From NCBI GenBank assembly GCA_030065275.1, contig JASJCV010000006.1:1-44092 (forward strand): a stretch of 44,092 nucleotides of DNA. The letters run 5' to 3'. The translations under genes were made by a program, and so were the position numbers. Positions 28,102 through 44,092 of the stretch are shown piece after piece. How positions within the stretch are numbered: the first letter of the stretch is position 1; each line of letters starts with the position of its first letter. This DNA is from Desulfobacterales bacterium. Lineage in GTDB: Bacteria > Desulfobacterota > Desulfobacteria > Desulfobacterales > UBA5852. Below the pieces are notes generated by a model. The model was not told the origin of the DNA. It made no database searches and worked only from the letters and a program-made list of their open reading frames with translations.

Positions 28102-28184
28102 TTTAGATCGAAACCCTCCGCTACGGTTGGAGGCGCCGGAACGTTACGGTCAATTCTAGTGATCGTCATGTCTTTACCGATTGG

Positions 28185-28335: not shown

Positions 28336-28345
28336 AGTTAAAGCC

Positions 28346-28962: not shown

Positions 28963-29035
28963 TAAGATTAGGTTCGCTTTTTGCCTAAAAAAAGATCTTA
29001 CAATGAAGCGCTCGATCCACCTAAGGCTGATAAAT

Positions 29036-29068
29036 AGTGGCGTTACGCTTCGGCTCTCGTCATTAGGG
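29036..29068 (-). repeat. Truncated module B fragment
   Basis: ggcgttacgcttcggctctcgtcatt repeats 28866-28891 (ggcgttacgcttcggtcctcgtcatt) and then diverges. Confidence 0.5.
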
Positions 29069-29149
29069 CCGGCATTCCCAATCGATCTTAATTCGCCAAT
29101 ACAGGCGGATTGCGCTTATCGCTTTTTACAGCCAAGCCTTCTTTGTTCG

Positions 29150-29309
29150 TTACTTTTCTTTCACGTGAAAAGAAAAGTAACCAAAAGAAAACGCCCGTGT
29201 CCCGCTCGCTCCTGCGCGTCGGCGACCCGGACGGCGCGCGTCGGAACTCGCTTCGCTCAAACAGGCCGACGCGCTTATTCCGTCCGCATCGCCGATGCTC
29301 GGCGCGGAA
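29150..29309 (+). repeat. Module A repeat copy (H hairpin + conserved tail)
   Basis: Near-perfect 15-bp palindrome TTACTTTTCTTTCAC/GTGAAAAGAAAAGTAA, then aaccaaaagaaaacgcccgtg...ctcctgcgcgtcg...ggaactcgcttcgctcaaacaggccgac...gatgctcggcgcgg. Aligns with 32292-32460. Confidence 0.75.
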
Positions 29310-29437
29310 CAATGGGAATATGTCCTAAAACCAAATGTCTGATTGAGATACCTCTCCAAGTGTTCTCCAAAGATTTCCAATTCGAGGGAGGCATCAAATT
29401 ATCGGTCGGGCATTGACCATTTCAAGGCAGGTGGCGC

Positions 29438-30211
29438 ATGACGGAAATATTGCCGTTGATTTACGGGGTCGAAGATCAGGTCGGCTGGATCACCTTCAAC
29501 CGCGAAGCCCAGCGCAATGCCATCAATCCGGAGGCGCTTGAATTGTTTCACAAGGCCCTGGATGCGGCCGAGGCCGATCCGTCGGTGCGCGTCGTCGGAC
29601 TGACCGGGGCCGGCGACCGGGCTTTCTGCGCCGGGGCCGACCTGGGCGGCGGGATGGATGCGGACAGCCAGGCCGTTTTCAAACGCTATGCCGCATTGCT
29701 CAAGCGCCTGGCCGGATATTCCAAGCCTACGGTGGCGCGGGTCAACGGCTACTGTCTGGCCGGAGGCATGGGGATTATGCTGGCCTGCGATATCGTCATC
29801 GCCTCGGAAGAGGCCAGATTCGGAACCCCGGAAGTCAATGTGGGGCTTTTCCCGATGATGATCGGGGCGTTGATCTACCGCAACGTGCTGCGCAAGAAGG
29901 CCATGGAAATGGTGCTGACTGGCAGCCGGCTCAAGGCGTCCGAGGCCCTGGGCATGGGGCTGGTGACGCGCGTGGTCGCACGAAGCGAGCTGGATACGGC
30001 GGTGGCGGGCCTCCTCGGGGAGCTGGTCGCCAAGAGCCCCATCGGGATGAAGATCGGCAAGCAGGCCTTTTACGCCATGGCGGACATGCCCTTTGAAAAG
30101 GCGGTGGACTACCTGTCCGACCAACTGGCCGAGGTGGCGGCCACCGAGGATGCGCGCGAAGGCATCCTGGCCTTTATTGAAAAGCGGCCGCCCAACTTCA
30201 AGGGCCGTTGA
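29438..30211 (+). CDS. Enoyl-CoA hydratase/isomerase (crotonase) family protein, AtuE/LiuC-like position
   Basis: 257 aa. Crotonase motifs FCAGADL and VNGYCLAGGMGIMLACD, with FGTPEVNVGLFP. Confidence 0.85.
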   Translation: MTEILPLIYGVEDQVGWITFNREAQRNAINPEALELFHKALDAAEADPSVRVVGLTGAGDRAFCAGADLGGGMDADSQAVFKRYAALLKRLAGYSKPTVARVNGYCLAGGMGIMLACDIVIASEEARFGTPEVNVGLFPMMIGALIYRNVLRKKAMEMVLTGSRLKASEALGMGLVTRVVARSELDTAVAGLLGELVAKSPIGMKIGKQAFYAMADMPFEKAVDYLSDQLAEVAATEDAREGILAFIEKRPPNFKGR

Positions 30212-30298
30212 CAGCGGCGGCGGGCCTCACACCATTTAGGGGTCGTTGGAATCGTCCCCGTCGCAACTGGAAACCACCCACTGCTGAAGGGAAGACCC

Positions 30299-32089
30299 AT
30301 GGGCACAGCCCCGAAGCGAGAAAAACTGATCATCGCCAACTGCAGCGGCTTTTTGGGCGACCGTTTCGATGCGGCCATGGAGATGGTGACAGGCGGCCCG
30401 ATCGACGTGCTGACCGGAGATTACCTGGCCGAACTGACCATGGCGATTCTATTCCGCCAGAAACTCAAGGACGCTTCCCGGGGCTATGCCGGCACCTTTT
30501 TGCGGCAGATGGAGGCGGTCATGGGACTCTGTCTGGAGCGCGGCATTCGGGTGGTCAGCAACGCGGGCGGCCTCAACCCCAAGGGCCTGGCCGCGGCGCT
30601 CCAGGCCCTGGCCGACAAGCTGGGGCTCAAACCCTTGATCGCCTACGTCGAAGGCGATGATCTTCTGCCTCGTCTGGACGAACTCCAGGGGCAGGGCGAA
30701 ACCTTCAGCCACTTGGACAAGGGGATCACGCTCAAGGAGGCCGCTGCCCAGCCCATCACCGCCAACGCCTACATCGGGGGTTGGGGGGTCACCCAGGCCC
30801 TGACCCGCGGGGCGGATATCGTCGTGGCCGGCCGCCTGGCCGACGCGGCTCTGGTCACCGGCCCGGCGGCCTGGCATTTCGGCTGGGACCGGGACGACTG
30901 GGACCGAATGGCCGGCGCCGCCGTGGCCGGCCATATCATCGAGTGCGGCGGGCAGGCCACGGGCGGGAATTACCCCTTTATCGAAGAAGTCGCCTCCTAC
31001 CGGCAGTTGGGCTTCCCGATCGCCGAAATCCACGCGGACGGATCCGCCGTCATCACCAAGCACCCGGGCACCGGCGGCCTCGTGTCGGTGGGCACGGTCA
31101 CCGCCCAATTGCTCTACGAAATCCAGGGGCCGGACTACCTGACGCCGGATGTGACCGCGCGGTTCGACACCATCCGCCTGGCTCCGGACGGCCCCGACCG
31201 GGTCCGGGTCACCGAAGTTACCGGCGCGCCGCCGCCGACCACCACCAAGGTCTGCCTGAACAATTTCTGGGGCTATCGCAATGCCATGACCCTGGTGATC
31301 ACCGGCCTGGATATCGACGCCAAGGCCCGCGTTCTGGAGGAGACCGTGACGGCCAGCCTGGGCGGGCGCGATCGGTTTGCGGTCTTCGAATCCCAGTTGG
31401 TGCGCTCGGACCGGTCGGAGCCTACCACCAACGACGAGGCGTTTGCCTATTTGCGACTGGGGGTGATCGATCCGGATCCAGCCAAGGTCGCCCGTTTCTC
31501 GGCCGCCATCGTGGAACTGGCGCTGGTGAGCATTCCCGGGTTTACCGCCACGGCGCCGCCGTCCAAGGGCACGCCGGCCATCCAGCACTGGCCGGCCCTG
31601 GTGGCCAATCACCGTTTACGTCCGCAGGTGGTGATCGGGGATGAGACGATCGCGATCGAACCGCTTACGGGAGCCGACATGCCTCCCCGGCCGAGGGCGC
31701 CGGCGGCAGCGGACGAAGACGATGGGTACCGTGACGGTAAGGCGCTGCCCTTGGGTCGGCTCTTCGGGACCCGTTCGGGCGACAAGGGCGGCAACGCCAA
31801 CCTGGGGGTCTGGGCCCGCAGCGAAGCCGGCTTCGCTTTCCTGCGGCGTTATCTCACCGTGGAGCGCCTGAAAACCCTGCTGCCCGATACGGCGTCTTAT
31901 GACATCGAGCGCTATGAACTGCCCAATCTTGGGGCCGTTAATTTTTACATCCGGGGGATTCTGGGGGAGGGTGTGGCCGCCTCGCTTAAAAGCGATCCCC
32001 AAGCCAAGACCCTGGGGGAATACCTGCGGGTCAAAACCATCCGGATACCCCCGGATCTCATGGATGAGGCGGGGCCCGCGCCGCGCTGA
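30299..32089 (+). CDS. AtuA-like (DUF1446, acyclic terpene utilisation) family protein
   Basis: 596 aa. The N-terminus LIIANCSGFLGDRFDAAMEMVTGGPIDVLTGDYLAELTM and GHIIECGGQATGGN match my recollection of the AtuA/DUF1446 family. A Pro/Ala-rich linker precedes a C-terminal domain of about 110 aa. Confidence 0.75.
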   Translation: MGTAPKREKLIIANCSGFLGDRFDAAMEMVTGGPIDVLTGDYLAELTMAILFRQKLKDASRGYAGTFLRQMEAVMGLCLERGIRVVSNAGGLNPKGLAAALQALADKLGLKPLIAYVEGDDLLPRLDELQGQGETFSHLDKGITLKEAAAQPITANAYIGGWGVTQALTRGADIVVAGRLADAALVTGPAAWHFGWDRDDWDRMAGAAVAGHIIECGGQATGGNYPFIEEVASYRQLGFPIAEIHADGSAVITKHPGTGGLVSVGTVTAQLLYEIQGPDYLTPDVTARFDTIRLAPDGPDRVRVTEVTGAPPPTTTKVCLNNFWGYRNAMTLVITGLDIDAKARVLEETVTASLGGRDRFAVFESQLVRSDRSEPTTNDEAFAYLRLGVIDPDPAKVARFSAAIVELALVSIPGFTATAPPSKGTPAIQHWPALVANHRLRPQVVIGDETIAIEPLTGADMPPRPRAPAAADEDDGYRDGKALPLGRLFGTRSGDKGGNANLGVWARSEAGFAFLRRYLTVERLKTLLPDTASYDIERYELPNLGAVNFYIRGILGEGVAASLKSDPQAKTLGEYLRVKTIRIPPDLMDEAGPAPR

Positions 32090-32291
32090 AAAAAAGATGA
32101 AACGGATTCCCAGGGCACCGACCCACTTCCGGGATACGATCACCGTTCGGATCGAAATCAATGAGAACTCGAAGAAAAGCCCCGGGCGCAACTGACCTTG
32201 CCCTGAACCAACCAGGAGGGGAAACGGTGGCTAAAACTTCCATCATACCGCCTCCTGGGTTGTATCCTACGGAAACAGTCTTCTCGATACT

Positions 32292-32460
32292 TACTTTTCT
32301 TTCGCGTGAAAGAAAAGTAAGCAAAAGAAACCGCCCGTGCCCCGCTTTCTCCTGCGCGTCGCCACGGCGGACGGAGCACGCGGAAACTCGCTTCGCTCAA
32401 ACAGTCCGCGCGCTTTTCCCGCCCGCCGCATCGATGCTCGGCGCGGGGCGAAGGGACATA
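32292..32460 (+). repeat. Module A repeat copy
   Basis: Perfect 13-bp hairpin TTACTTTTCTTTC-gcgt-GAAAGAAAAGTAA at 32292-32321, followed by the same tail as 29181-29309. Confidence 0.75.
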
Positions 32461-32603
32461 CCGCCAGAGCGACAAACAGCTTAGTCAAGGAGTAGGCAAA
32501 TGTTTGGCTGCCTCGTAAAGCCATCTCGTGCCGATGGTCGACCGACAATTGCCGGATAATCTCCACGGCACTTAATCGTTGCTGAACGAAAAACGGGGGC
32601 GAC

Positions 32604-33767
32604 ATGACAATGTCATTCAACACCACGTCCGGGTGTCAGGCGTATTTTTCCAAGGCGCATGACATGGTGCGGCGGTCGGTGCGGGAGTTTGTGAACCAGG
32701 CCATACGCCCCCATGTCGACGACTGGGAGGAAGCCGGAAGCTTTCCCAAGGAACTATACCGCCAGGCCGGAGAGGTTGGCATCCTGGGGATCGGCTACCC
32801 CGAGGCGTTGGGCGGTACGCCCGGGGACATCTTCTTCAAGATCGCGGCCAGCGAAGAGCTGATGCGCTGCGGGTCGGGCGGGCTGGTGGCGGGGTTGGGG
32901 TCGCTGGACATCGCCATCCCGCCCATCGTGCGCCACGGTACGGCCGACCAGCACGCCCGTTTCGTGCGGCCGGTTCTGACCGGTGAGAAGATTGCCGCCC
33001 TGGGCGTCACCGAGCCCGGCGGGGGCTCGGACGTGGCTGCGATCCAGACCACGGCCGAGCGGCAAGGCGACGTCTACGTGGTCAACGGCGGCAAAACCTT
33101 TATCACCAGCGGCTGCCGGGCGGATCTGGTGGCTTGCGCGGTGCGCACCGGGGGCGAAGGGGCCCACGGGATCAGCCTCCTGGTGATCGAGAAGGATTTT
33201 CCCGGGTTCGCCGTTTCAAGGCCCTTGAATAAGATGGGCTGGTGGGCGTCGGACACGGCCGAGCTTTTCTTCGACAACTGCCGCGTGCCCGTGGCCAACC
33301 GCATCGGGGCGGAGGACCAGGGGTTCTATCTGATCATGGAGAATTTCCAGAAGGAGCGCCTGGCTTTGGCGGTGATGGCCAACATGACCGCCCAACTGGC
33401 GCTGGACGAAGCGCTGGCTTATGCCCGGGAGCGCCGGGCTTTTGGAACAACCCTTACAGGTTTTCAGGTGACACGCCACAAACTGGTTGAAATGGCCAGC
33501 CTGGTGGAGATCAGCCGGGAGTTCACTTACCGGGTGGCGGCGCGAATGGACGCCGGCCAGGACCAGGTCAAGGAGGTCGCGATGGCCAAGAATTTCGCCT
33601 GCCGCGTCAGCCAGCAGGTGACCCATGACGCCGTGCAGATCTTCGGCGGCTACGGCTTCATGCGCGGGTACCTGGTGGAGCGACTCTACCGGGACAGCCG
33701 GCTGTTGTCCATCGGCGGCGGCACCACCGAGATTATGAACGAGGTTATCGCCAAACTGATTTTGTAG
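32604..33767 (+). CDS. Acyl-CoA dehydrogenase (isovaleryl-/citronellyl-CoA dehydrogenase-like position)
   Basis: 387 aa. Motifs GVTEPGGGSD, FITSG, FQKERLALA and a C-terminal IGGGTTEIM. Confidence 0.85.
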   Translation: MTMSFNTTSGCQAYFSKAHDMVRRSVREFVNQAIRPHVDDWEEAGSFPKELYRQAGEVGILGIGYPEALGGTPGDIFFKIAASEELMRCGSGGLVAGLGSLDIAIPPIVRHGTADQHARFVRPVLTGEKIAALGVTEPGGGSDVAAIQTTAERQGDVYVVNGGKTFITSGCRADLVACAVRTGGEGAHGISLLVIEKDFPGFAVSRPLNKMGWWASDTAELFFDNCRVPVANRIGAEDQGFYLIMENFQKERLALAVMANMTAQLALDEALAYARERRAFGTTLTGFQVTRHKLVEMASLVEISREFTYRVAARMDAGQDQVKEVAMAKNFACRVSQQVTHDAVQIFGGYGFMRGYLVERLYRDSRLLSIGGGTTEIMNEVIAKLIL

Positions 33768-33838: not shown

Positions 33839-35191
33839 TCAGAGCCGGAACAGCCAACGGGCTAGGTAGAAATAGAACGAAATGCTGAGAATGTCGATCG
33901 AGGTGGTCACGAACGGCCCGGTGGCCACGGCCGGGTCGATGTTGAAGCGGGCAAAGGTCATGGGCAGAAGAGCCCCCACCACGGCGGCCATGGTCATGGT
34001 GAACACCACCGCCAGGGCCACGAGCAGCCCGAGTTGCCAGATCTGATAGCCGAACTGGGCCAGCACCCCCAGCAGCACGCCGTAGACGAAACCGAGCATG
34101 AACCCCACAGCGGTCTCCTTTAAAACGACGTTTCCCAGGCGATGGACCTGGATACTTTCTGTGGCCAGGCCGCGAACCACGATGGTGGCCGACTGGGTGC
34201 CGATGTTGCCGCCCATACCCATGATCACAGGGATGAACGCGGCCAGGTAGACCATCTGCTCCAGCGTCGATTCGAAATGCCCGATAATCATGGTGGCGGC
34301 GATGCCGCCGCCGCAGGTGGCCAGCAGCCAGGGCAGGCGGATGCGGATGCTGGACATCACCGATTTGGTTTCGATGAAATCCTCGCCGGCCCCGGCCATT
34401 TTCAGGATGTCCTCGGTGGCTTCGTCGCGGATGATGTCGATGACATCATCCACCGTAACGATGCCAACCATCCGCTGGTCGGCGTCCACCACCGGCACGG
34501 CCAGCAGGTTATAGCGGCTGACGACGCGGGCGACCTCTTCCTGGTCGGTATCCGTGGATACCGAAAAGGTTTCGCGTGTCATCAACGCGCTCAATGCCGT
34601 ATCCGGCTTGGCGGTGACAAGGGCTCGCAAGGAACACACCCCGCTGAGCCGCTGGTCTGCTCCGACGACATAGAGATAGAAGGCCGTTTCAACGTTGCGG
34701 TGCTCTTTTTGAATCCGGGCGATCGCCTCGCGAACCGTGGTGGTTTCCGCCAGGGCGAAAAATTCCGTGGCCATGATGCCGCCGGCCGTTTTGCGGTCGT
34801 ATTGCAGAAGATCCCCCACCCCCTCGGAGTATTCACGCTGCAACCCTTCCAGGACCTGGCGGCCGATCTCGGGCGGCAGGTTTTCCACGAGATCCGCCAG
34901 GTCGTCGGCGGCGAGGTGTTCGCTGGCCACGACAAGATCCCCTATCGGGATGGCGGCCGCAAAGGGGTGCAGGTCGTCGATATCCAGTTTGGCGAGGAGG
35001 ACGCCGCGTCCGGCGGGATCATCGATCAGGTCATAGAGTTTCAGCTGTTCGTTCAGGCTCAGGACCGAGAAGGAGCGGGCCAGGTCGACCGGGTGGGCGC
35101 GACGGACGATCTTGCGCAGATGGGAATATGAGCGCCGGCGCAGCAGGCGCTGAATCGTTTTGGCCAGAATATTGCGCGTGTCCACTGTCAT
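33839..35191 (-). CDS. mgtE: Magnesium transporter MgtE
   Basis: 450 aa. MgtE N-domain, a CBS pair (GGIMATEF...; LLAVPVVD), and a C-terminal 5-TM domain with GMGGNIGTQS and the ATGPFVTT..D motif. Confidence 0.9.
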   Translation of the reverse strand: MTVDTRNILAKTIQRLLRRRSYSHLRKIVRRAHPVDLARSFSVLSLNEQLKLYDLIDDPAGRGVLLAKLDIDDLHPFAAAIPIGDLVVASEHLAADDLADLVENLPPEIGRQVLEGLQREYSEGVGDLLQYDRKTAGGIMATEFFALAETTTVREAIARIQKEHRNVETAFYLYVVGADQRLSGVCSLRALVTAKPDTALSALMTRETFSVSTDTDQEEVARVVSRYNLLAVPVVDADQRMVGIVTVDDVIDIIRDEATEDILKMAGAGEDFIETKSVMSSIRIRLPWLLATCGGGIAATMIIGHFESTLEQMVYLAAFIPVIMGMGGNIGTQSATIVVRGLATESIQVHRLGNVVLKETAVGFMLGFVYGVLLGVLAQFGYQIWQLGLLVALAVVFTMTMAAVVGALLPMTFARFNIDPAVATGPFVTTSIDILSISFYFYLARWLFRL

Positions 35192-35292: not shown

Positions 35293-35865
35293 TTATTTGT
35301 AGGCTTTGTGACAGTCTTTTTTCAGCTGCTCCAGCCGGGCGTAGCCATCCTTGAAGGCTGTCCAGTTTCGGGCCTCATAGGCATCGGCCAGTTGGCGGCA
35401 GGCTTCCCGGTAGGCCGGATAGTCGGGTTCGCCGTATTTTTTGCCCGCAAAGGCCATCATCCGTTCGGAGTCGGAGAGGAAACCATTCAGAATTTCAGGT
35501 TCCGGAAGCTTTTGCTGTTCCAGCGCTTCACCGATTTCCTTAAAAGACGATTTCATTCGCTTCTTCAGCGGTTTATATTTGATTGACGGCTTAACCGGGG
35601 CTGGGCCCGACGACGGCTCGTCCGCCCCGGCTTCGGGCGCTGTTGGCTCGGCGGGGGGATCGGCCTTGATTTTTATTTTCAGTGTCCACCCGCCGCCGGC
35701 GGCTTTGCCTTTGAGCTCCAGCCTGCCGATCGGTTCGGGAAGATCGGACAATTCCGGTGGCAGATTGTTGTCTTTCTTTTCTAAAGCATCCGCCAGCCGG
35801 CGCAGGCAGGCAGGTATTTCTTCAAACGGTACATCCTGTTTGAACTTACGTTCCGAGGCCTTCAT
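35293..35865 (-). CDS. GAK-system amphi-Trp + XXXCH domain protein
   Basis: 190 aa with an AGGAAG RBS. The N-terminal ~70 aa is amphi-Trp-like (IPACLRRLADALE...LELKGKAAGGGWTLKIKIKAD). A Pro/Ala linker follows. The C-terminal domain ends in the LKKDCHKAYK motif (the CH of XXXCH). Divergent from the operon at 36195. Confidence 0.7.
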   Translation of the reverse strand: MKASERKFKQDVPFEEIPACLRRLADALEKKDNNLPPELSDLPEPIGRLELKGKAAGGGWTLKIKIKADPPAEPTAPEAGADEPSSGPAPVKPSIKYKPLKKRMKSSFKEIGEALEQQKLPEPEILNGFLSDSERMMAFAGKKYGEPDYPAYREACRQLADAYEARNWTAFKDGYARLEQLKKDCHKAYK

Positions 35866-36194
35866 GGTGGCTTCCTTTCTTGCGCGGTCATTTCGTGATG
35901 ATCGGGGTACCTCGATGGGCTGAAGCCAATTTGCTGACCGTTGGTTAGATTATGATTAGGCGCTGCCGGGGGTTTACGGCGGTGAGCACAGTGCGTAATA
36001 AACATCCTTAGGCATCCGATCCAATAGGATAGATTAGTTCCTTGCCTGGATTTGGCAAGGATCGGGCGAACCAATTAATCGACCGATCCTAACACGTAAC
36101 TAACATCGCGAGATGAATATGACGGCTTTGATAGGTGCAGCCATAGACGATGCACCTCTGGCCGGATTTGCGAATCGATCGGGATAATCGAGAT

Positions 36195-37358
36195 ATGAAA
36201 TCAAGCCAACCCCAGAAAAGGACCGAATGGTTTTCGGTCATTCCGGACAAAATTCCCGAGGACGTCACCGCGGCAGACGAAGCCCTTTTCGATGCCATCA
36301 CCGCCACCCGGCTCTCCGAAGATCAGCAGCAGCGCGTGGCGGTCCCCGAGCGGGTCGTCCATCGGCAGGAGAGTGTCCTGGCTATTCACTGGCATCCGGA
36401 ATATGTTCCCATGCCGTTGATCGCTCGCCGGATCGAGGCCATGTACCCGGACAAGCGCCGATCCCTGATCATCCCGACCCAGCACAATGTGCTCACCGCC
36501 TGCGGTGATTATGCGGGTGTCGAGATCGACTGCTATTCGCGCGGATTCAACCAGAAGGTCCAACTCCTGCTGCATTTTGTCCGTTCACGCATCGAAGATG
36601 CGGATTTGCTCAAGTCCATCCTGGCCCATACCTTCAAATACCGATCGTCCCAGTTGTTTGAATTCATGCACACCCTGACCAAACCGGTGGAGGCGCGCAT
36701 CGCATCGGCGGCCCGGGAAACCGGGGCCAATGAGGCCCTGATCGATTTCACCCGGGTTTACATCAAAAAGATCAGCCGTCTGCTGGAGGCCAAGGGGGGG
36801 GATTTGCCGCCCGAGATGATCAAAAACAAGATTCTCCGCAATTTTTTCGACGGGTTGCGGGAGCAGCACGGCGACACCCTGATCGATCGTGTGCAGACAT
36901 TTCTCAAAGCGGTCAAAACACGGGTCAAGGCCGAGTTCCCCCTGCATTATTTCTACCGGACGTCGGAGGTGATCGAGGAGGCACGCGCGCTGGGGGCGGG
37001 TATCGTCATACCGCACCCCGAACAATTCTGGCCGATCCTTCTGGCGGACTACGATGTCGACGGGATTGAAGTCTGGAACCCGCAGTCGCGCAAATACACG
37101 GAGTTTTTGATCGCGGTCATCAATCAGAAAAACCGCTGCGGCGGCCTGTCCAAACGCAATCTTTTAATTTTCATGGGGGACGATACCCATATGGCGGAGA
37201 AAACCCGCGCCCCTGAGGTTCAGGACCAGGAAAAAGCCGCCCGCGAAATCGGCTACCAGCCGGCCTGGGACGATTTTAGCATCCGCAAAGCGCTCATCCG
37301 CGCCGGTGCCAATCGACGCAATGTCATTCAGGAGTATGAAGCGCGTTTGGGGCAGTAA
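36195..37358 (+). CDS. Hypothetical protein with a PHP-like metal-phosphoesterase motif set; first gene of the GAK operon
   Basis: ATG at 36195 is preferred over the ATG at 36150. The ordered motifs IHWHPE, IIPTQHN, GVEIDC, VIPHPEQF, GIEVWN and MGDDTHM resemble PHP motifs (HxH, H, E, HP, E..N, DxH). A helical insert of about 120 aa lies between them. Coding confidence is about 0.7 and function confidence about 0.35. Confidence 0.45.
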   Translation: MKSSQPQKRTEWFSVIPDKIPEDVTAADEALFDAITATRLSEDQQQRVAVPERVVHRQESVLAIHWHPEYVPMPLIARRIEAMYPDKRRSLIIPTQHNVLTACGDYAGVEIDCYSRGFNQKVQLLLHFVRSRIEDADLLKSILAHTFKYRSSQLFEFMHTLTKPVEARIASAARETGANEALIDFTRVYIKKISRLLEAKGGDLPPEMIKNKILRNFFDGLREQHGDTLIDRVQTFLKAVKTRVKAEFPLHYFYRTSEVIEEARALGAGIVIPHPEQFWPILLADYDVDGIEVWNPQSRKYTEFLIAVINQKNRCGGLSKRNLLIFMGDDTHMAEKTRAPEVQDQEKAAREIGYQPAWDDFSIRKALIRAGANRRNVIQEYEARLGQ

Positions 37359-37382
37359 CCTGCAGCAAAGGAATATTCGACC

Positions 37383-37649
37383 ATGGCGGAATACGGCAGT
37401 TTTGAATACGAATCCTACCAGGACCTGGAGACCATCCAGAAGTTTCTGGAGTCGCTCACCCAGGGGTTTGCCAAGGAGCAGATTTTTCTCAGTTCGGGTG
37501 ACGACACCATTGAACTTCAGCCCAAAAATCTGCTCAAATTTTCGGTGAGTGCCAAGAAGAAAGAAGACAAGACCAAATTAAGCATCAAGATTTCTTGGAA
37601 GGAAGGCAAGATCAAGGCCGCCAAGCAGCCTTTGGAAATTGGACCCTGA
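37383..37649 (+). CDS. Amphi-Trp domain protein (stand-alone, 88 aa)
   Basis: AAGGAA RBS. Pattern IQKFLESLTQGF...LQP..LLKFSVSAKKKEDKTKLSIKISWKEG has a single Trp in a Lys-rich amphipathic strand. Paralogous to 42669..42959. Confidence 0.7.
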   Translation: MAEYGSFEYESYQDLETIQKFLESLTQGFAKEQIFLSSGDDTIELQPKNLLKFSVSAKKKEDKTKLSIKISWKEGKIKAAKQPLEIGP

Positions 37650-37652
37650 GCC

Positions 37653-39290
37653 ATGATCACTTTTGAGTCCCTCGAAGAGAATCTCAAATTCCTGGTGCTG
37701 GAGGTCGAAAACCAGCTAACGCTGACCTTCCGGCTGCTCAACGACGCCGACCCCGACCTGCTGGAGAAAGTCTCCGCCAAAGACGACTACGTCGACAACC
37801 TCAAGGCGATCATCGAAAACGAATGTTTCTCCCGTCTGCACGGCGATGCCGGTAAAGGATCGGACGACATCCGGACCATCCGGGCGTCCCACGCCATCGC
37901 CGTCAATCTGGAGCGCATCGCCGACTACTGTGTCAACATCGCGCGCCAGACCGAGTATCTGATCGATTTCAATCATTTGCACCAATCCAATTTCCAGGAG
38001 ATGTTCACCCTGATCCAGTCCAGTATCGAGCAGGTCCTGCCGGCCCTGAAAAAGCAGAATCTGCCCCAGGCCCTCAGAATTTGCCGGTCGGAACAGCAAC
38101 TGGACAAACTCTACAAAGAGAATTTCGACTGGATCATGGCCCGTCTGCGCACCGGCCATTTCGTCGAAGACCTGATCACGACGCTCTTTATTTTTCGTTA
38201 TCTGGAGCGCATCGGTGATTCCCTCTTGAATATCGGCGAAGCGTTGATTTTTGCCGCCACCGGGGAGCGCATCAAGATCGAGCAATTTGACGCCCTCAAA
38301 GAGGTGCTGGCCAGTCCCGGCCTGGAAGAAACCCTCACCGGGGCGGAATTCAAATCCATCTGGGGCTCACGGTCGGGCTGCCGGATCGGACGGGTGGACA
38401 TGGCGGAGGGGGCGCCGGCAGCGGCACAAGGGCTCTACAAAGAAGGGGTCAGGGCCAAGATCCGTAAGGAAAAAGAAAATATCGAACTCTGGGAAAAAAT
38501 CATGCCGGGACTGGCCCCGCGTATCCTGGCCTATCGGGAAAACACCGACAAGGCCACGCTGCTGGTCGAGTTCTTCGAGGGCCGCACACTGGATTCGATC
38601 ATCCTGGGCAACGACGACAGGACGCTGCAGGCGGCCATGGCGGCGCTGGAGAAGACCCTGGGAGAAGTCTGGCAGCGCACCCGGCGCGAGCAGGCGACCC
38701 CGACGGACTACATGGGGCAGCTCAAGGCCCGTCTGGGTACGGTCCGGCGGGTGCATCCCGGGTTCATGCGATCCTGGAAGGCCATCGACCAGTTGGAGAT
38801 TCGATCGTCCGAAGACCTCATCGATCGTTGTGCGGCGATCGAACAGGCGCATCCCGCCCCCTTCGGCATCCAGATTCACGGCGATTTCAACGCCAACAAT
38901 GTGATTTTCAACCCCGATAGCGGGCGGATCAACTACATCGACTTCCACCGCTCGCGTCAAGCCGACTACATCCAGGATGTCTCCGTCTTTCTGGTCTCCA
39001 ATTTCAGAATGCCGGTTTTCGAACCATCCCTGCGCCAACGTCTCAACGATGTCATCAAGCGTTTTTTCGCGTTCAGCGCCGATTTCGCCCGCAACCACGG
39101 CGATGCCGATTTCGAGCTGCGTATGGCGCTGGCGTTGGCCCGGTCGTTTTACACGTCCACCCGTTTCGAGCTCAACCAGGACTTTGCCCGCGACATGTTC
39201 ACGCGCGCGCACTACCTGATGGAAAAAGTACTGACGCATTCGGAGGCGGCGTCCGCCTTTCGGCTGGAACGCCAAGTGCTCTACTACTGA
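37653..39290 (+). CDS. PhoU-domain / protein-kinase-like (APH/ChoK-type) phosphotransferase fusion protein
   Basis: 545 aa. Starts 3 nt after the amphi-Trp stop. The N-terminal ~215 aa has two PhoU-like repeats (DDYVDNL...NLERIADYCVNIA and LDKLY...YLERIGDSLLNIGE). The C-terminal half has the catalytic loop IHGDFNANNVIF and the metal-binding segment INYIDFHRS. Confidence 0.7.
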   Translation: MITFESLEENLKFLVLEVENQLTLTFRLLNDADPDLLEKVSAKDDYVDNLKAIIENECFSRLHGDAGKGSDDIRTIRASHAIAVNLERIADYCVNIARQTEYLIDFNHLHQSNFQEMFTLIQSSIEQVLPALKKQNLPQALRICRSEQQLDKLYKENFDWIMARLRTGHFVEDLITTLFIFRYLERIGDSLLNIGEALIFAATGERIKIEQFDALKEVLASPGLEETLTGAEFKSIWGSRSGCRIGRVDMAEGAPAAAQGLYKEGVRAKIRKEKENIELWEKIMPGLAPRILAYRENTDKATLLVEFFEGRTLDSIILGNDDRTLQAAMAALEKTLGEVWQRTRREQATPTDYMGQLKARLGTVRRVHPGFMRSWKAIDQLEIRSSEDLIDRCAAIEQAHPAPFGIQIHGDFNANNVIFNPDSGRINYIDFHRSRQADYIQDVSVFLVSNFRMPVFEPSLRQRLNDVIKRFFAFSADFARNHGDADFELRMALALARSFYTSTRFELNQDFARDMFTRAHYLMEKVLTHSEAASAFRLERQVLYY

Positions 39291-39374
39291 GGACACCGCC
39301 ATTCACCCGATTTCTGAAAGGGCCTGACGGCGCCCTCTAAAACCCAAACGGATACTGCAAGTAAAAGGCTCCCA

Positions 39375-40265
39375 ATGAACATCAAACTTGGCGTGGTCGG
39401 CACGCCCGGCGGCTGGTCGTCGGAAAAACTGGCCGATACGGTGGCCGCGATGACCGGATATCGGCTGTTGATCGACATGTCACGCCTGGCGCTGGACCTT
39501 TCCGAAGGGCGGGCCTGGTTCGAGGGCACCGATGTCAGCGCCCTGGACGGTCTGATCATCAAAAAAATCGGGGCCTGGTATTCGCCCGATCTGCTGGACC
39601 GCCTCGAAATGCTGCGTTTTTTGCACGCCCGCGGGCTGCCCATTTTTTCTTCGCCTTACAATATCATGCGCGTGCTGGATCGCCTGAGTTGCACGGTCAC
39701 CCTTCAGCTGGCCGGCATCCCCATGCCGCCGACGACGGTCACCGAAGACGTGGATGCGGCCGTCGCGTCGGTGGCCCAATACGGCGAGGCGGTGTTCAAG
39801 CCGCTCTATTCCACCAAGGCCAAGGGCATGCTGCTTTTGTCCGACGGGCCCGGCGCCCGTCAGACGATCGAGGCCTACCACAACGAAAACCCGATCATGT
39901 ACATCCAGAGGAAGATGGATCTGCGGGGCAAGGATCTGGGGATTGCGTTTCTGGGCGGCCAGTATTTGACGACCTACGCGCGGGTGAAAGGGGAGGGCGC
40001 CTGGAACACCACCACCCGTTCCGGGGGGCATTACGAGGCGTTTGAGCCGCCCGAGGAATTGATCACCCTGGCCCATAAAGCCCAGGCGCCGTTCGACCTG
40101 GATTTTACCTGTGTGGACGTGGCCGAGACTCCCGGCGGTCCGATCGTTTTCGAGGTTTCGGCCTTCGGTGGCTTTCGTGGCATCGAGACGGCCAGCGGCA
40201 TCGATGCCGCCCGGCGTTACGTAGAATTCGTACTGGAAAGGATCGGACATGAATCCGCTGCCTGA
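39375..40265 (+). CDS. GAK-system ATP-grasp enzyme (RimK-like ligase)
   Basis: 296 aa. RimK-like order: DRLSCTVTLQLAGIPMPPT, AVFKPLYSTKAKGM, MYIQRKMDLRGKDLGIAFLGG, WNTTTRSGG, VDVAETPGGPIVFEVSAFGGFRG. Confidence 0.75.
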   Translation: MNIKLGVVGTPGGWSSEKLADTVAAMTGYRLLIDMSRLALDLSEGRAWFEGTDVSALDGLIIKKIGAWYSPDLLDRLEMLRFLHARGLPIFSSPYNIMRVLDRLSCTVTLQLAGIPMPPTTVTEDVDAAVASVAQYGEAVFKPLYSTKAKGMLLLSDGPGARQTIEAYHNENPIMYIQRKMDLRGKDLGIAFLGGQYLTTYARVKGEGAWNTTTRSGGHYEAFEPPEELITLAHKAQAPFDLDFTCVDVAETPGGPIVFEVSAFGGFRGIETASGIDAARRYVEFVLERIGHESAA

Positions 40266-41343
40266 AAGCCGTCAGGCGCTGGTTGCCCAAATCAGGGAGG
40301 CCCTGCCGGCAACATCAACGTTTTACCTGCAGCTCGGAAGATGTTTGCTGGCGGTCCACACCGACCGCGAATCGATCGTCGACGCCCTGCGTGAATATTT
40401 TAAGCCTTTTGTGGCCGAAGCCGGGGTTGCCGATATCGAGGTCAGCATCCACGAGGCGCCGGAGTATCGGCTGCCGGTTGATTTCACGGTCAAAGAACCG
40501 GATCCCGGCAAGACCAAAATCAAAGAGGAATTCTATGAGTTGGCCGATGGGCGGATTGTCCGCAAATGCCTGACCGGGATGCTGTTCGTTATCGGCGGGG
40601 GCGATAATGTCGCTGTAGGCCCCTGTCTCGACAATCTCAACCAGGTCGTCAATTTCATCAATAACCGCTACATCGAGTGGATCTTATGCCAGGGCAGCCT
40701 TCTGGGGCATGCCGCCGGTGTGGTTCTCAACGGCCAGGGCCTGGCGCTGGCAGGGTTTTCAGGCGCGGGCAAATCCACCCTGGCCCTGCACCTCATGAAC
40801 GAGGGGGCTACCTTTATCTCCAACGATCGATTGATGATCGAAAAGAGAAAAAACGGACTGGTGATGCACGGTGTTGCGAAGATGCCGCGCATCAATCCGG
40901 GAACAGCGCTCAACAACCCGAAACTGCGCACGGTCATGAGCGCGGAAGAGCAGACGCGTTTTGCTTCCCTGCCCGAAAACGAACTCTGGGAGCTCGAGCA
41001 CAAGTACGATGCATTGATCGATGACTGCTATGGTCCGGACCGCTTTGTGCTGCGGGCGCCGATGCAAGCGCTTGTTCTATTGAACTGGCGGCGCAATGGC
41101 GGACCGACCGAAGTGTCGCCGGTGGATCTGGCCGAGCGACGGGACTTGCTGCCGGCGTTCATCAAAAACGTGGGCCTCTTTTTTGTGCCGCCGGAGCAGT
41201 GTGCCATGCCCGCTCCGGTCGAGGATGCCTATATCGACTTTCTTTCGCGCTGCAGCGTTTTCGAGGTCAGCGGTGGAACCAACTTCGCGGCTGCGGCCCA
41301 GGCCTGCCTGCGATTTGTCCGTCCCGACCCCTCGGCGGCCTGA
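40249..41343 (+). CDS. HprK-related kinase (type B, GAK system)
   Basis: 364 aa. Overlaps the ATP-grasp gene by 17 nt. The P-loop context GLALAGFSGAGKSTLALHLMNEGATFISNDRLMI parallels the HPr kinase GxSGxGKSE.AL.L...GH.L..DD. Confidence 0.75.
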   Translation: MNPLPESRQALVAQIREALPATSTFYLQLGRCLLAVHTDRESIVDALREYFKPFVAEAGVADIEVSIHEAPEYRLPVDFTVKEPDPGKTKIKEEFYELADGRIVRKCLTGMLFVIGGGDNVAVGPCLDNLNQVVNFINNRYIEWILCQGSLLGHAAGVVLNGQGLALAGFSGAGKSTLALHLMNEGATFISNDRLMIEKRKNGLVMHGVAKMPRINPGTALNNPKLRTVMSAEEQTRFASLPENELWELEHKYDALIDDCYGPDRFVLRAPMQALVLLNWRRNGGPTEVSPVDLAERRDLLPAFIKNVGLFFVPPEQCAMPAPVEDAYIDFLSRCSVFEVSGGTNFAAAAQACLRFVRPDPSAA

Positions 41344-41356
41344 GCCGGTTACCCGC

Positions 41357-42562
41357 ATGCAGATCGAGATCACCCACACCATCGACCTTCCCGATCCCCG
41401 CCGGATGGAGCTGCTGCGACGCAACCCGGATCTGGGGCCGCGGATCCTGTTCTTCAGCGGCGGCAGCGCCCTGCGCAAGACCAGTGAAGAACTGGTCTAT
41501 TTCACCCATAACTCGATCCACATCATCACACCGGTGGATTCGGGCGGCAGCTCGGCCGTCCTGCGCAATGCGTTTCAAATGCCGGCCATCGGCGATATAC
41601 GCAACCGCTTGATGGCGCTGGCCGATCGCGGCCTTCGTGGCAACCCCGAGATTTTTCGACTGTTCGCCTACCGTCTCCCTCATGGGGCCGGCCCGGAGGC
41701 GCTGGCCGACGAACTGCTGGAAATGGCCCGGGGAGAACATCCTCTGATCCAACGGGTTCCTGACCCCATGCGCAAGATCGTGCGCAACTACCTGCAGTCC
41801 TTCGTCGACATGCTCGGCAGTAATGAACGGCTCAGGAGTTTTGACCTGCGGGGGGCGAGCATCGGCAATCTCATCCTGACCGCCAGCTATCTTAGCAACC
41901 GGCGGCATTTTGACCCGGCCATATTTATTTTCTCCAAGCTGGTCAACGTGCGCGGCACGGTGCGTCCGGTCGCCAATGCCGACCTGCATCTCGTCGCGGA
42001 GATGGAGGACGGTGAAACCATTGTCGGCCAGCACCTGCTCACCGGCAAGGAGGTGCCCCCAATCGAGAGCCGGGTCAAATCGGTCTACCTGAGCGCGTCA
42101 CGCCAGGCACCCAGGCCGACCACCTTGGGTATCCGGGAAAAAATGAAAACCCTGATCGGTTCAGCTGACCTGATCTGCTATCCCATGGGCAGTTTTTACT
42201 CCAGCCTCCTGTCGAACCTCCTGATCCGTGGGGTATCGGATGCCATCTGGCGCAATCCGCGTCCCAAGGTTTTCATCCCCAGCACAGGCAACGACCCTGA
42301 ACTTTTCGGGCACAGCTTGAGCGATCAGGTCGAAGTCTTGCTGGAGGCCCTCAAACGGGACGACCCCGCGAATATCAAAGACGGTGACGTGCTCAACTAC
42401 ATCCTGCTGGACGAGCGCAACGGAAACTACTCAGGGGCATTGGATCAAGACGCGCTTGCGCGGCGAGGTATTCAAACGATCAGCTGCCGCCTGGTGAGCA
42501 TGCGCAGCCAGCCGTATATCGACGAGAAGATGCTGGTACCGATCCTGCTTTCCCTTTCCTGA
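41357..42562 (+). CDS. GAK-system CofD/YvcK-like protein
   Basis: ORF trimmed to the ATG at 41357. ILFFSGGSALRKTS...HIITPVDSGGSSAVLRNAFQMPAIGDIRNRLMALAD matches the CofD/YvcK N-terminal signature (GGtG...v.DdGGSsG.lR...pa.GDiRn). Confidence 0.75.
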   Translation: MQIEITHTIDLPDPRRMELLRRNPDLGPRILFFSGGSALRKTSEELVYFTHNSIHIITPVDSGGSSAVLRNAFQMPAIGDIRNRLMALADRGLRGNPEIFRLFAYRLPHGAGPEALADELLEMARGEHPLIQRVPDPMRKIVRNYLQSFVDMLGSNERLRSFDLRGASIGNLILTASYLSNRRHFDPAIFIFSKLVNVRGTVRPVANADLHLVAEMEDGETIVGQHLLTGKEVPPIESRVKSVYLSASRQAPRPTTLGIREKMKTLIGSADLICYPMGSFYSSLLSNLLIRGVSDAIWRNPRPKVFIPSTGNDPELFGHSLSDQVEVLLEALKRDDPANIKDGDVLNYILLDERNGNYSGALDQDALARRGIQTISCRLVSMRSQPYIDEKMLVPILLSLS

Positions 42563-42668
42563 GACCCGATCGCTTGGAATGCGCAGGAATCGGTTGGCGT
42601 TTTTTATCGACATCCGCTTGGGTGGCAATATCGCCGCGGATTTCATTTAACCTCGAGGAGAAAAGCAA

Positions 42669-42959
42669 ATGGGCGAGAAATCGATTGGCTTCAAACGCAT
42701 GGTCGACATTCACGAGGCCGTTTCATATTTGGAGGCGTTGGCCAAGGGTTTTCGGGACGGGCGCATCGTCGTGGAGCATGGCGGGAAGACGCTGGATATG
42801 GAGCCGCCTTCGGTGGTTGTTCTGGAAATCGAGGCCAAGCAAAAGAAGGACAAAAATAAATTCGGTTTTGAAATTGCCTGGAAAAACGATGCCGAGCAGG
42901 AAGGTGGCGAACCGTTGAGAATATCATCCGGATCCGGGGAATTGCCCCCGGCGGCGTAA
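42669..42959 (+). CDS. Amphi-Trp domain protein (stand-alone, 96 aa)
   Basis: GAGGAG RBS. AVSYLEALAKGF...MEPP.VVVLEIEAKQKKDKNKFGFEIAWKND aligns position by position with 37383..37649. Confidence 0.7.
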   Translation: MGEKSIGFKRMVDIHEAVSYLEALAKGFRDGRIVVEHGGKTLDMEPPSVVVLEIEAKQKKDKNKFGFEIAWKNDAEQEGGEPLRISSGSGELPPAA

Positions 42960-43059: not shown

Positions 43060-43401
43060 CTATCGGGGTACGAGAATGGTATTATTCTGACATATCGTGT
43101 CGTCATTCTCGGTGCGGGGATCATCCTGGGTTAAATCCATGAATGTCAGGTGGACCCATCCGCTGGTGGCGGTAATCGAAACCACGCCCCCTCGGTTGAG
43201 ATTGCCACTCCAGATGATGCCGCTTTTACGACGGATAGACGGAGCCTTTTGGCTGCCACGCGAGTAGTGCGCTTCCAGATAGACCGGCTTGGTCGCCTTA
43301 ATTTGGCAGGTGGTGTCCTCTTCGGCCCTCATGTCGGTTGGCAGGGCCAGGGCGATGCCCGTAAGGGCCAAAGTGAGCATAACAATCAGGATCCGGTTCA
43401 T
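43060..43401 (-). CDS. Small secreted protein, unknown function (paralogue 1)
   Basis: 113 aa with a GGGGAG RBS and a signal peptide. Two conserved Cys. About 50% identical to 43574..43915, including the identical C-terminus ILVPR. Confidence 0.6.
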   Translation of the reverse strand: MNRILIVMLTLALTGIALALPTDMRAEEDTTCQIKATKPVYLEAHYSRGSQKAPSIRRKSGIIWSGNLNRGGVVSITATSGWVHLTFMDLTQDDPRTENDDTICQNNTILVPR

Positions 43402-43573: not shown

Positions 43574-43915
43574 TCACCGCGGTACGAGTATTGTCCTTCC
43601 GTTCTTGCAGATCGTATCGTTGTTTTCGCTTCGCGGGTCTCGATCGGTCAAATCCTGATAAGCCAGATGAATCCAGCCGTTGCGGGTATTAAAGGACTGG
43701 ACCTCCCCGCGGCGCATGTTTCCGCTCCAGATCACGTCGCTTTTATTTCGGATGCTCGGCGATTTCCGGCCGCCATCCGAGTAGTGCGCCTGGAGATTCA
43801 CGTCCTTGATCGCTTTGATCGTACACGTGTTGTTGCGGGCGCCGGCATCGGGCGCCAGTGCGCTGGCCATGAAAAGTAATAACGCGAGGGTTGAGAAAAT
43901 CGGTATCGGTTTCAT
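43574..43915 (-). CDS. Small secreted protein, unknown function (paralogue 2)
   Basis: ORF trimmed to the ATG at 43915, with GGAGG 6 nt upstream. 113 aa with a signal peptide. Shares AHYS.G..K.PSIR.KS..IWSGN..RG.V.S..T..GW.HL...DLT..DPR.EN.DTIC.N..ILVPR with paralogue 1. Confidence 0.6.
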   Translation of the reverse strand: MKPIPIFSTLALLLFMASALAPDAGARNNTCTIKAIKDVNLQAHYSDGGRKSPSIRNKSDVIWSGNMRRGEVQSFNTRNGWIHLAYQDLTDRDPRSENNDTICKNGRTILVPR

Positions 43916-44092
43916 ATAAACCTCCTTCAGGACTAAATAAGATCCTGATGTTATCTTAGTGATCGGGCGATAAAATTTAACAGTGACAAAGCCGAAGTTT
44001 TTCAAGCACGGCCTTCATCGCTTTTGGATACAACAGCAATCTTTATCTCATTGGAAAGCAAACAGCCACACTCAGAATAAGCAATTTAAAAT

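Follow-up and report, generated by a model that had tools for sequence, protein, structure and literature searches.

What does the GAK system do? This set of protein families is catalogued in databases by comparative genomics, and the question of its function is raised here by eight adjacent genes, g1 to g8, at positions 35293–42959 of a 44,092-nucleotide stretch of DNA from a Desulfobacterales bacterium (GenBank assembly GCA_030065275.1, contig JASJCV010000006.1, positions 1 to 44,092 of the forward strand), hereafter the window. An earlier reading of the letters alone, which we call the original prediction, had described these genes as a complete GAK system with no known function. Our computational follow-up indicates that the cluster is almost certainly a complete and typical GAK system, shows that its conserved core of six genes exceeds the set implied by the named models, and yields a tentative proposal for what the products do together, namely a phosphate-status-gated covalent modification cycle on or through small amphi-Trp proteins.

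The description "no known function" agrees with the literature. Full-text searches returned nothing on GAK, on HprK-related kinase B or on XXXCH as a protein domain, and for amphi-Trp they returned one incidental mention of a protein and no functional study. The term XXXCH is absent from the main text of a Rhodobium paper, and a phosphate-limitation study of D. alaskensis leaves the GAK genes unmentioned.

The cluster is a complete GAK system

The eight genes stand in the open reading frame (ORF) list where the original prediction had placed them. They are as follows, with the basis of each assignment in brackets.

35293–35865, minus strand: g1, XXXCH-domain protein, 190 residues (ORF list and TIGR04358)
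36195–37358, plus strand: g2, predicted divergent PHP-type metal-dependent phosphoesterase, 387 residues (predicted fold and invariant residues)
37383–37649, plus strand: g3, short amphi-Trp protein, 88 residues (TIGR04354)
37653–39290, plus strand: g4, fusion of PhoU with an APH/protein-kinase-like phosphotransferase, 545 residues (Pfam PhoU and APH)
39375–40265, plus strand: g5, GAK-system ATP-grasp protein of the RimK/LysX/MptN type, 296 residues (TIGR04356)
40249–41343, plus strand: g6, HprK-related kinase B (HprK-B), a P-loop kinase, 364 residues (TIGR04355)
41357–42562, plus strand: g7, GAK-system CofD-like protein (TIGR04357)
42669–42959, plus strand: g8, second amphi-Trp protein, 96 residues, with a PLRISS motif and a short tail (TIGR04354)

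Scores were judged against the curated NCBIfam/TIGRFAMs cut-offs and are given throughout as bits/cut-off. The ATP-grasp protein g5 matched TIGR04356 (grasp_GAK) over its full length with 452.9/300, g6 matched TIGR04355 (HprK_rel_B) with 528.2/200, g7 matched TIGR04357 (CofD_rel_GAK) with 522.1/340 and g1 matched TIGR04358 (XXXCH) with 76.9/40, while the amphi-Trp model TIGR04354 recognized both g3 (74.8/31) and g8 (72.4/31). The profile search that the original prediction had proposed thus came out in its favor for every named GAK model, five families in all, and with hallmark proteins far above the cut-offs and a conserved gene order it is hard to doubt that the system is complete. As in the system known by comparative genomics (TIGR04354–TIGR04358), all five model families are adjacent in the window, and their order matches that of 80 other genomes with no difference in kind. 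The locus is a typical member of the catalogued system, and the window itself adds no more than a typical example would. What is new here is the larger core, which takes in the PHP-like and PhoU-kinase families, the likeness of XXXCH to cytochrome c', the phosphate and magnesium context and the downgrading of an analogy with cofactor F420 synthesis.

Two gene starts call for comment. The ORF of g2 spans 36150–37358 on the plus strand, and translation probably begins at the ATG at 36195 because homologues are ~387 residues long. The ORF of g7 opens at 41096 and its start is probably at 41357, because the TIGR04357 match begins at residue 114 of that ORF. Gaps along the plus-strand operon are 24 nt (g2–g3), 3 nt (g3–g4), 84 nt (g4–g5), 13 nt (g6–g7) and 106 nt (g7–g8), and g5 and g6 overlap by 17 nt. 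The g1 gene is divergent from g2 and lies outside this operon, co-directional with a gene for the Mg2+ channel MgtE. All products of the cluster look cytoplasmic.

Six genes form the conserved core

To compare loci, aligned HprK-B homologues were used to search one genome per GTDB species. Relatives of HprK-B are encoded at no fewer than 348 loci; the best 80, numbered here with an L prefix, were kept, and the window proteins were mapped onto their six-frame ORFs. These 80 loci are mostly from Desulfobacterota, with one each from SAR324, Nitrospinaceae and Spirochaetia, and the order g1-g2-g3-g4-g5-g6-g7-g8 recurs almost everywhere among them. Presence was counted in the 53 loci with enough flank around the HprK-B gene: g4 and g5 were each found in 51/53, g3 in 50/53, g7 in 49/53, g2 in 48/53, g1 in 38/53 and g8 in 31/53. 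The clustering is not due to chance, because the core genes are present in 48–51 of the 53 loci in the same order. The test of neighborhood conservation suggested in the original prediction therefore found the gene set co-conserved, in one order, across several phyla.

The conserved core consists of six genes, encoding the PHP-type phosphoesterase, the short amphi-Trp protein, the PhoU-APH kinase, the RimK-like ATP-grasp protein, HprK-related kinase B and the YvcK/CofD-like protein. This unit exceeds the set implied by the named models, as the g2 and g4 families are as conserved as the named ones. The XXXCH protein, detected in 46/80 loci by iterated search, and the tailed amphi-Trp protein are frequent but optional additions. 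Most genomes have g1 upstream of and co-directional with g2; it is divergent solely in the window and its nearest relatives, L002, L003 and L013. Two loci, L032 and L039, hold g3-g4-g5-g6 without the PHP-like g2 and the CofD-like g7, and the Nitrospinaceae locus L066 keeps g2 and lacks g7. A minimal core of kinase, ATP-grasp and amphi-Trp protein may thus exist.

The stop codon of g5 and the start of g6 overlap by 4 nt in 39/73 loci, and the g3–g4 gap is at most 30 nt in 59/63. Because these two junctions are the tightest, they suggest coupled translation and possibly two physical pairs, one of the ATP-grasp protein with HprK-B and one of the amphi-Trp protein with the PhoU-kinase.

Kinases, ligase and YvcK-like protein

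The cluster lies outside the strict HprK/P, RimK, LysX, MptN, CofF, CofD, PhoU and cytochrome c' families, as the model or motif of each fails. HprK/P, the HPr kinase/phosphorylase, acts on HPr, a protein of 88 residues. An 88-residue protein is encoded in the GAK operon as well (g3), although the predicted amphi-Trp fold differs from the HPr fold. Alignment of the g6 family profile with HprK/P is confined to the vicinity of the Walker A motif and of the ADDR-type region (SNDR in g6), and g6 scores 28.7/240 against the HPr kinase/phosphorylase model TIGR00679. Within its own family the P-loop, GFSGxGKST, is invariant and the N-terminal 145 residues are highly conserved and match nothing. Compared with HprK/P, g6 thus has Asn-Asp in place of Asp-Asp and a distinct N-terminal domain. 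A second likeness is to the HprK-like kinases of lasso-peptide clusters (PadeK, ThcoK), which act on a C-terminal Ser; many g3 orthologues end in Ser. These lasso-peptide-cluster homologues phosphorylate, and even polyphosphorylate, the C-terminal Ser of the precursor peptide (PMC9266682).

The fusion protein g4 carries a PhoU domain at residues ~5–220 and a kinase domain at ~225–460. Pfam recognizes two PhoU repeats (107.7 bits, cut-off 23.5) and APH (39.5 bits), searches of the PDB returned PhoU, and the catalytic motif HGDFNANN can be read in the translation. Against the NCBIfam model phoU_full (TIGR02135) the protein scored 113.9, just under the cut-off of 130.25. The PhoU domain is thus clear by Pfam, but it falls below the TIGR02135 cut-off and is fused to a kinase rather than standing alone. 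Fused PhoU proteins were left out of a 2026 paper on PhoU clades.

The g5 protein belongs to the RimK family of ATP-grasp enzymes (Pfam RimK), and its closest solved structures are RimK and LysX/ArgX. Its nearest relatives are thus the enzymes of the RimK-S6 and LysX/ArgX-LysW systems, MptN and CofF. It nonetheless falls below the cut-off of every one of these models: the best non-GAK score is to MptN (129.4/350), followed by rimK_fam (88/143.4), LysX (69.3/275.6) and CofF (16.9/300). The C-termini of amphi-Trp proteins are, moreover, non-acidic, unlike those of S6 and LysW.

The last enzyme-like product, g7, shares the CofD domain (Pfam CofD, 133 bits) with both CofD and YvcK/GlmR. It reaches 118.7/196 on the YvcK-type model TIGR01826, and so stays under the YvcK cut-off, and has an equivalog-type model of its own. 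Matches in the PDB were confined to YvcK-like structures (2ppv, 2o2z and 2hzb, E ~1e-24), and the NCBIfam and PDB searches gave no match to CofD proper. By these comparisons g7 is closer to YvcK/GlmR than to CofD. YvcK-type proteins bind UDP-sugars.

A predicted divergent PHP-type phosphoesterase

The original prediction had called g2 PHP-like, a call that is borne out by predicted fold and motif and not by sequence models. No Pfam, NCBIfam or PDB sequence match was obtained for g2, even with a 35-sequence profile. Homologue searches returned >1,600 relatives for g2 and >1,600 for the HprK-B kinase. Those of g2 are all named "hypothetical", and the family has a length of ~387 residues. An AlphaFold2 model built from the family alignment had a predicted local distance difference test score (pLDDT) of 89 and a predicted template modeling score (pTM) of 0.86. 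When this model was compared with the PDB by Foldseek, the four best matches were all cog0613-type PHP proteins, RNase AM (9etk), BAD_1165 (3o0f and 3e0f) and Cv1693 (2yb1), with E values of 3e-5 to 4e-3 and template modeling (TM) scores of 0.4–0.5 (about 0.5 on the target).

Eight residues are invariant in the g2 family: H65, H67, H97, E110, H127, H274, D330 and H332. They lie at or just past predicted strand ends, where PHP proteins carry their metal ligands, so that the predicted barrel presents the His-x-His, His, Glu, His, His, Asp-x-His series of the cog0613 PHP proteins (RNase AM/YciV, Cv1693 and BAD_1165). The g2 family differs from these in having no detectable sequence similarity to them and in a family-specific helical insertion of ~135 residues (~130–265), and the TM scores of 0.4–0.5 mark the distance. 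Fold and motif together support the view that g2 is a divergent PHP-type phosphoesterase of a previously unannotated family.

The XXXCH protein resembles class II cytochromes c

The original prediction had described g1 as an amphi-Trp domain joined to XXXCH. The XXXCH half stands; the other half is weakly amphi-Trp-like. No amphi-Trp hidden Markov model detects the N-terminal half, and a profile-profile comparison with amphi-Trp gave a weak match (E 5e-4, probability 31%). This half is nevertheless predicted to form a β-α-β-β domain with a conserved Trp, and in one relative, P0331, a canonical amphi-Trp domain is joined to XXXCH.

The AlphaFold2 model of g1 (pLDDT 80) comprises the N-terminal β-α-β-β domain (~1–68, modeled from 5 to 68), a disordered linker (70–92) and a four-helix bundle (97–189) with helices at 97–116, 123–136, 146–164 and 168–189. 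The chain ends in DCHKAYK. Foldseek comparison of this model with the PDB gave as top matches cytochromes c' from several species and the Kuenenia Kusta0087/88 cytochrome (probability 1.0, TM ~0.6 on the target, E 1e-2 to 1e-1). Support that does not depend on the model came from the g1-family sequence profile, which, searched against the PDB, brought up 28 sub-threshold sequences (E 0.35–10), 20 of which are class II cytochromes c at E 0.4–1; many of these 20 are mutants of one protein, which leaves ~5 independent proteins. In the profile alignment the family motif kkdCHkayk falls exactly on the cytochrome c' heme motif CKACHDAYK. Cys185 and His186 are invariant, all 46 locus copies end in CHxx[Y/H/F][K/D], and M104, C156 and M136 are invariant or nearly so.

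The predicted four-helix bundle is thus shared with class II cytochromes c (c', c556) and cytochrome b562, and the C-terminal CHxxY(K/R) of XXXCH aligns on the heme-binding CXXCHxxY(K/R), placing its His on the heme His near the C-terminus. There are also differences. CXXCH lacks its first Cys in every sequence compared, 30 aligned from the g1 family and 46 from the loci, and Lys or some other residue stands in its place; the sequence matches reach E values of only 0.4–1; and the N-terminus, MKASERKFKQDVPFEE, contains no signal peptide, which puts the protein out of reach of the periplasmic machinery for heme attachment. Given the predicted fold and the profile alignment, we take XXXCH to be related to class II cytochromes c but to reside in the cytoplasm. 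Heme could be held via His186, possibly with a single thioether from Cys185.

The amphi-Trp proteins

Among 1.8 billion representative proteins, the amphi-Trp family comprised ~1,400 representative clusters. Nearly all members are 86–220 residues long and begin with the domain, which a tail of low complexity follows. No amphi-Trp-enzyme fusion was found in that set; its single long amphi-Trp match, P0354, is an unrelated repeat protein. In a proteomic study of Dissulfuribacter thermophilus, an amphi-Trp protein ranks within the top 20 by abundance (PMC13490349).

Two types occur in the cluster. In the g3 type F7 and W72 are invariant, and residue 11, at the start of helix 1, is Ser in 62/66 orthologues (94%), Ala in three and Cys in one. 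A cluster of Lys residues, K58–K69, lies on the β-hairpin. Because residues alternate in an L-S-I-K-I-S-W-K pattern, the sequence suggests that the Trp sits on a buried face and that Lys and Ser line an exposed one. The C-terminal residue of g3-type proteins is Ser in 32/66 orthologues and Ser or Thr in 37/66. We considered the C-terminal Ser as a universal acceptor and rejected it, given that only 32/66 orthologues end in Ser and that the window g3 ends in Gly-Pro.

In the g8 type, an L-K-I-S-S-x-E-P motif is followed by a tail that is acidic, histone-H1-like (Lys/Ala/Pro) or nearly absent. Members from Desulfovibrionaceae carry long histone-H1-like Lys/Ala/Pro repeats, for example AKKAAPKKPAAKK, and histone-H1-like tails were seen in L019 (12282–12908), L027, L031, L036, L045, L051 and L075. 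The tails of L073 and L076 are strongly acidic, and that of the window is nearly absent.

A gene for a ParA/MinD-like ATPase overlaps a further (third) amphi-Trp gene ~250 nt 3' of g8 in Pseudodesulfovibrio. The pair is found at L081 13078–14272 (Pseudodesulfovibrio piezophilus) and in L027, L034, L036 and L045, with a 59-residue ORF between g8 and the pair, and in Desulfobulbaceae (L052, 3190–4859) a similar ATPase gene follows two amphi-Trp genes upstream of the cluster. These arrangements suggest a positioning ATPase as the partner of some amphi-Trp proteins.

Genomic context and regulation

All flanking ORFs were clustered across the loci. Directly upstream of the cluster and co-directional with it, pstC-pstA-pstB-phoU occurs in ~10 loci from three orders, namely Desulfobacterales (L006–L012 and L055), Desulfobulbales (L056 and L061) and Desulfohalobiaceae (L064). 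The gene for MgtE is attached in two ways. In the window, L003 and L013 it comes after g1 on the minus strand, with a gap of 101 nt in the window, where the two genes may form a unit divergent from g2–g8. In L005–L010 and L029 it lies directly after g7 on the operon strand, the position that it has in Desulfococcaceae. Together with the PhoU fusion of the g4 kinase, this context points to phosphate and Mg2+ economy. The two neighboring features of the window are:

33839–35191, minus strand: mgtE, Mg2+ channel, probable accessory gene (Pfam MgtE_N, CBS and MgtE)
35866–36194: divergent intergenic region between g1 and g2 (sequence reading)

In the intergenic region stands a palindrome, CCTTGCC-N7-GGCAAGG (36040–36060), with a sigma-54-like element, TGGCA-N8-GC, overlapping it. 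Past these comes a direct repeat, CTAACAC-GTAA-CTAACAT (36089–36106), whose 11-bp periodicity is typical of OmpR/PhoB-type sites. Conservation of these elements among the closest relatives is partial. A de novo search for direct repeats with 10–12-bp spacing upstream of the cluster in 59 loci found CTAACA only in L002, L003 and L020, and we do not claim a conserved Pho box, since the repeat is confined to near relatives and L020. A histidine kinase and an OmpR/PhoB-type response regulator are encoded elsewhere in the window (8769–11374, minus strand) and are a possible regulator for the repeat upstream of g2. Rfam searches found no riboswitch or other RNA in the window, and a scan of the window for sigma-70 promoters and terminators was uninformative.

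Three further kinds of gene were observed near the cluster. An ArsC/low-molecular-weight-phosphatase-like gene (CxxNSxRS) lies near it in 11 loci, after phoU, directly before g2 or after g8 (for example L011 3648–4076, L038 5451–5885 and L076 12724–13215). A protein of ~817 residues, which by eye joins an N-terminal PHP domain to a C-terminal group-1 glycosyltransferase, is encoded within 10 kb in ~11 loci at varying position and strand (L008 16947–19400, L020 870–3350 and L068 2134–4644). Proteins recognized by eye as containing EAL and GGDEF domains (turnover of cyclic di-GMP) are encoded near the cluster in ~10 loci (L060 13194–15074, L012 3642–5543 and L073 3856–5700). Their presence is reminiscent of the EAL protein RimA, which belongs to the rimABK operon of Pseudomonas.

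A proposed modification cycle

The original prediction had offered two mechanisms as hypotheses, stepwise covalent modification of the amphi-Trp proteins and synthesis of a phosphodiester-linked small molecule, and both keep that standing. Our preferred reading, to which we give a probability of roughly 0.35, is that the GAK system carries out a cycle of covalent modification, gated by phosphate status, which acts on the small amphi-Trp proteins or by way of them. Its two kinases, HprK-B and the APH-type kinase gated by PhoU, would phosphorylate an amphi-Trp protein, for which the g3 type is the candidate acceptor because its gene is tightly coupled to that of the PhoU-kinase. The RimK-like ligase, translationally coupled to HprK-B, would ligate an amino acid onto a carboxylate of that target, as RimK does with ribosomal protein S6 and LysX with LysW; both of these enzymes act at the C-termini of small proteins. 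The PHP phosphoesterase would reverse the phosphorylation and the YvcK-like protein would bind or transfer a nucleotide-linked group. The XXXCH protein, a putative cytochrome-c'-like bundle with an amphi-Trp-like handle, may provide heme, redox or metal input, and the PhoU domain, the pst-phoU neighborhood and mgtE would link the output to phosphate and Mg2+ economy.

Several lines of evidence favor this cycle. By analogy, the other members of the clade that includes HprK-B phosphorylate small proteins or peptide termini, and RimK and LysX, which stand closest to g5 among solved structures, work on the C-termini of small proteins. Three non-enzymatic amphi-Trp paralogues are retained in the operon. 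The P-loop and SNDR of g6, HGDFNANN of g4 and the full PHP-type candidate set of g2 suggest catalytic competence. Gene coupling at g3–g4 and g5–g6 and the 94% Ser at the start of helix 1 in the g3 type also speak for it, and the PhoU fusion and the pst-phoU and mgtE neighbors favor the link to phosphate and Mg2+.

A number of observations weigh against the cycle, every step of which we infer. The amphi-Trp proteins have no invariant Ser, Thr or Glu; S11 is Ala or Cys in 4/66 orthologues, two of them in complete clusters; the window g3 ends in Gly-Pro; and the amphi-Trp C-termini are not acidic as those of S6 and LysW are. A Lys-rich sheet face and a probably buried Trp fit a binding or scaffold role as well as that of a substrate. 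The substrates hydrolysed by the proteins closest to g2 in structure are nucleotides or RNA rather than phosphoproteins, the best non-GAK model for g5, MptN, is a small-molecule glutamate ligase, and the binding of UDP-sugars by YvcK points toward metabolites. Finally, pst and mgtE adjoin the cluster in a minority of loci.

Alternative explanations

Some of these points lead directly to a second explanation, which is nearly as likely as the modification cycle and still, taken by itself, on the unlikely side: the enzymes may build or recycle a phosphorylated, nucleotide-linked, amino-acid-ligated metabolite. The APH-type kinase would make a sugar or alcohol phosphate, the YvcK/CofD-like protein would make or transfer a nucleoside diphosphate (NDP)-linked or phosphodiester group, the RimK/MptN-like ligase would cap a carboxylate with glutamate and the PHP enzyme would remove a nucleotide or phosphate by-product. 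The amphi-Trp proteins would then serve the anionic product as subunits for its non-covalent binding, its storage or its regulation. The match of g5 to MptN (129 bits) speaks for such a pathway, as does the membership of g7 in a CofD/YvcK superfamily that handles NDP-linked groups. The g2 fold matches nucleotide-acting cog0613 PHP proteins (RNase AM, and Cv1693, which was solved with AMP), and APH-family enzymes commonly phosphorylate hydroxyls of small molecules. The amphi-Trp proteins, small, unfused to enzymes and abundant in one proteome, likewise conserve a Lys-rich surface and no invariant acceptor residue. Yet the cluster contains no nucleotidyltransferase or other obvious activating enzyme, three conserved non-enzymatic paralogues would be unusual in a plain biosynthetic operon, and a candidate metabolite is lacking. 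To our knowledge, moreover, every substrate known for an HprK-family kinase is a protein or a peptide, which counts against this pathway.

Considerably less probable is a phosphate-rich storage body. Here the kinases would make a highly phosphorylated compound neutralized by Mg2+, with the ATP-grasp protein acting as a kinase in the manner of ITPK1 and PPIP5K; amphi-Trp proteins would coat or organize the body and a ParA-like ATPase would position it in some genomes. Hensgens et al. are said to have described in 1996 granules of Desulfovibrio gigas that contain glucose pentakis(diphosphate) and Mg2+. Three kinase-capable folds and a phosphoesterase would suit such a body, as would the PhoU fusion and the pst-phoU and mgtE neighborhoods, but g5 is closest to amino-acid ligases and has no detectable similarity to ITPK1 or PPIP5K. 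The Lys-rich amphi-Trp surfaces and the Lys/Ala/Pro g8 tails of Desulfovibrionaceae are also in keeping with it, although the tails are acidic or absent in many orthologues, the window included. The ParA/MinD-like ATPase beside amphi-Trp genes in Pseudodesulfovibrio and at a Desulfobulbaceae locus would be its positioning factor, yet this linkage is limited to two clades, and our literature search gave no link.

We hold in equally low regard a wider proposal, in which GAK would be an unrecognized phosphate/magnesium economy system of anaerobes. Its kinases and ligase would produce a highly phosphorylated species for storage or buffering, which could be a small molecule or be built on the amphi-Trp proteins themselves. 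These Lys-rich proteins would bind the species or form its coat, and in some genomes a ParA-type ATPase would see to its positioning. The XXXCH protein, as a cytoplasmic, cytochrome-c'-like hemoprotein with heme on a single Cys, would couple the system to redox or gas sensing.

The original prediction had invoked the logic of F420 tail synthesis (CofD plus CofF), that is, F420- or methanopterin-type cofactor assembly in which a phospho-alcohol is transferred to a head group that is then glutamylated. This we consider very improbable. The Pfam CofD match of g7 (133 bits) and the weak similarity of g5 to MptN and CofF are in its favor, but the analogy is weak because g7 is YvcK-type, matching that model and those structures and not CofD proper, and because g5 scores only 16.9/300 on CofF and 129/350 on MptN. 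Within the 80 loci there is no CofC, CofE, CofG or CofH partner, and both kinases, PhoU, PHP, amphi-Trp and XXXCH would be left unexplained.

Least probable of all is an anti-phage defense island, mobile cargo or fortuitous adjacency, for although many genes lack an assigned function, kinases and an ATPase-like protein among them, and the GC content at 36–38 kb (0.53–0.56) is slightly below that of much of the window, PADLOC gave nothing meaningful (a 16.9-bit chance match to Csm2), the gene order is kept in several phyla beside housekeeping genes such as pst, start and stop codons overlap, and no integrase, transposase or tRNA was noted among the flanking genes annotated.

Other genes of the window

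The remaining content of the window is ordinary and comprises acyl-CoA and Atu-like catabolism, a two-component system and a chemoreceptor. An acyl-CoA catabolic cluster at 18984–33767, with likeness to acyclic-terpene/leucine utilization, encodes four acyl-CoA dehydrogenases, a carboxyltransferase, a biotin carboxylase, an enoyl-CoA hydratase and AtuA. Two paralogous small proteins of 113 and 143 residues are encoded on the minus strand at 43060–43401 and 43574–44005; they have N-terminal hydrophobic leaders and a common C-terminal domain, ...IWSGN...GW(V/I)HL...DTIC(Q/K)N...ILVPR. The Pfam scan covered the 113-residue copy alone and found no match.

Significance

The GAK system, which is conserved among sulfate-reducing bacteria, is among the larger conserved cassettes of Desulfobacterota without an assigned function, and its Desulfobacterota hosts drive marine sulfur and carbon cycling. 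Its products probably transfer phosphate groups in some connection with the supply of phosphate and magnesium to the cell. The value of the locus lies in sharper testable hypotheses, which concern the pairs g3–g4 and g5–g6, the residues Ser11 of g3 and Cys185 and His186 of g1, and limitation for phosphate (Pi) or Mg2+. Should XXXCH prove to bind heme, it would be a relative of cytochrome c' of a rare, cytoplasmic kind. If the link to phosphate and magnesium holds, the GAK system would either add a layer to phosphate homeostasis as now known or represent a protein modification of a new kind.

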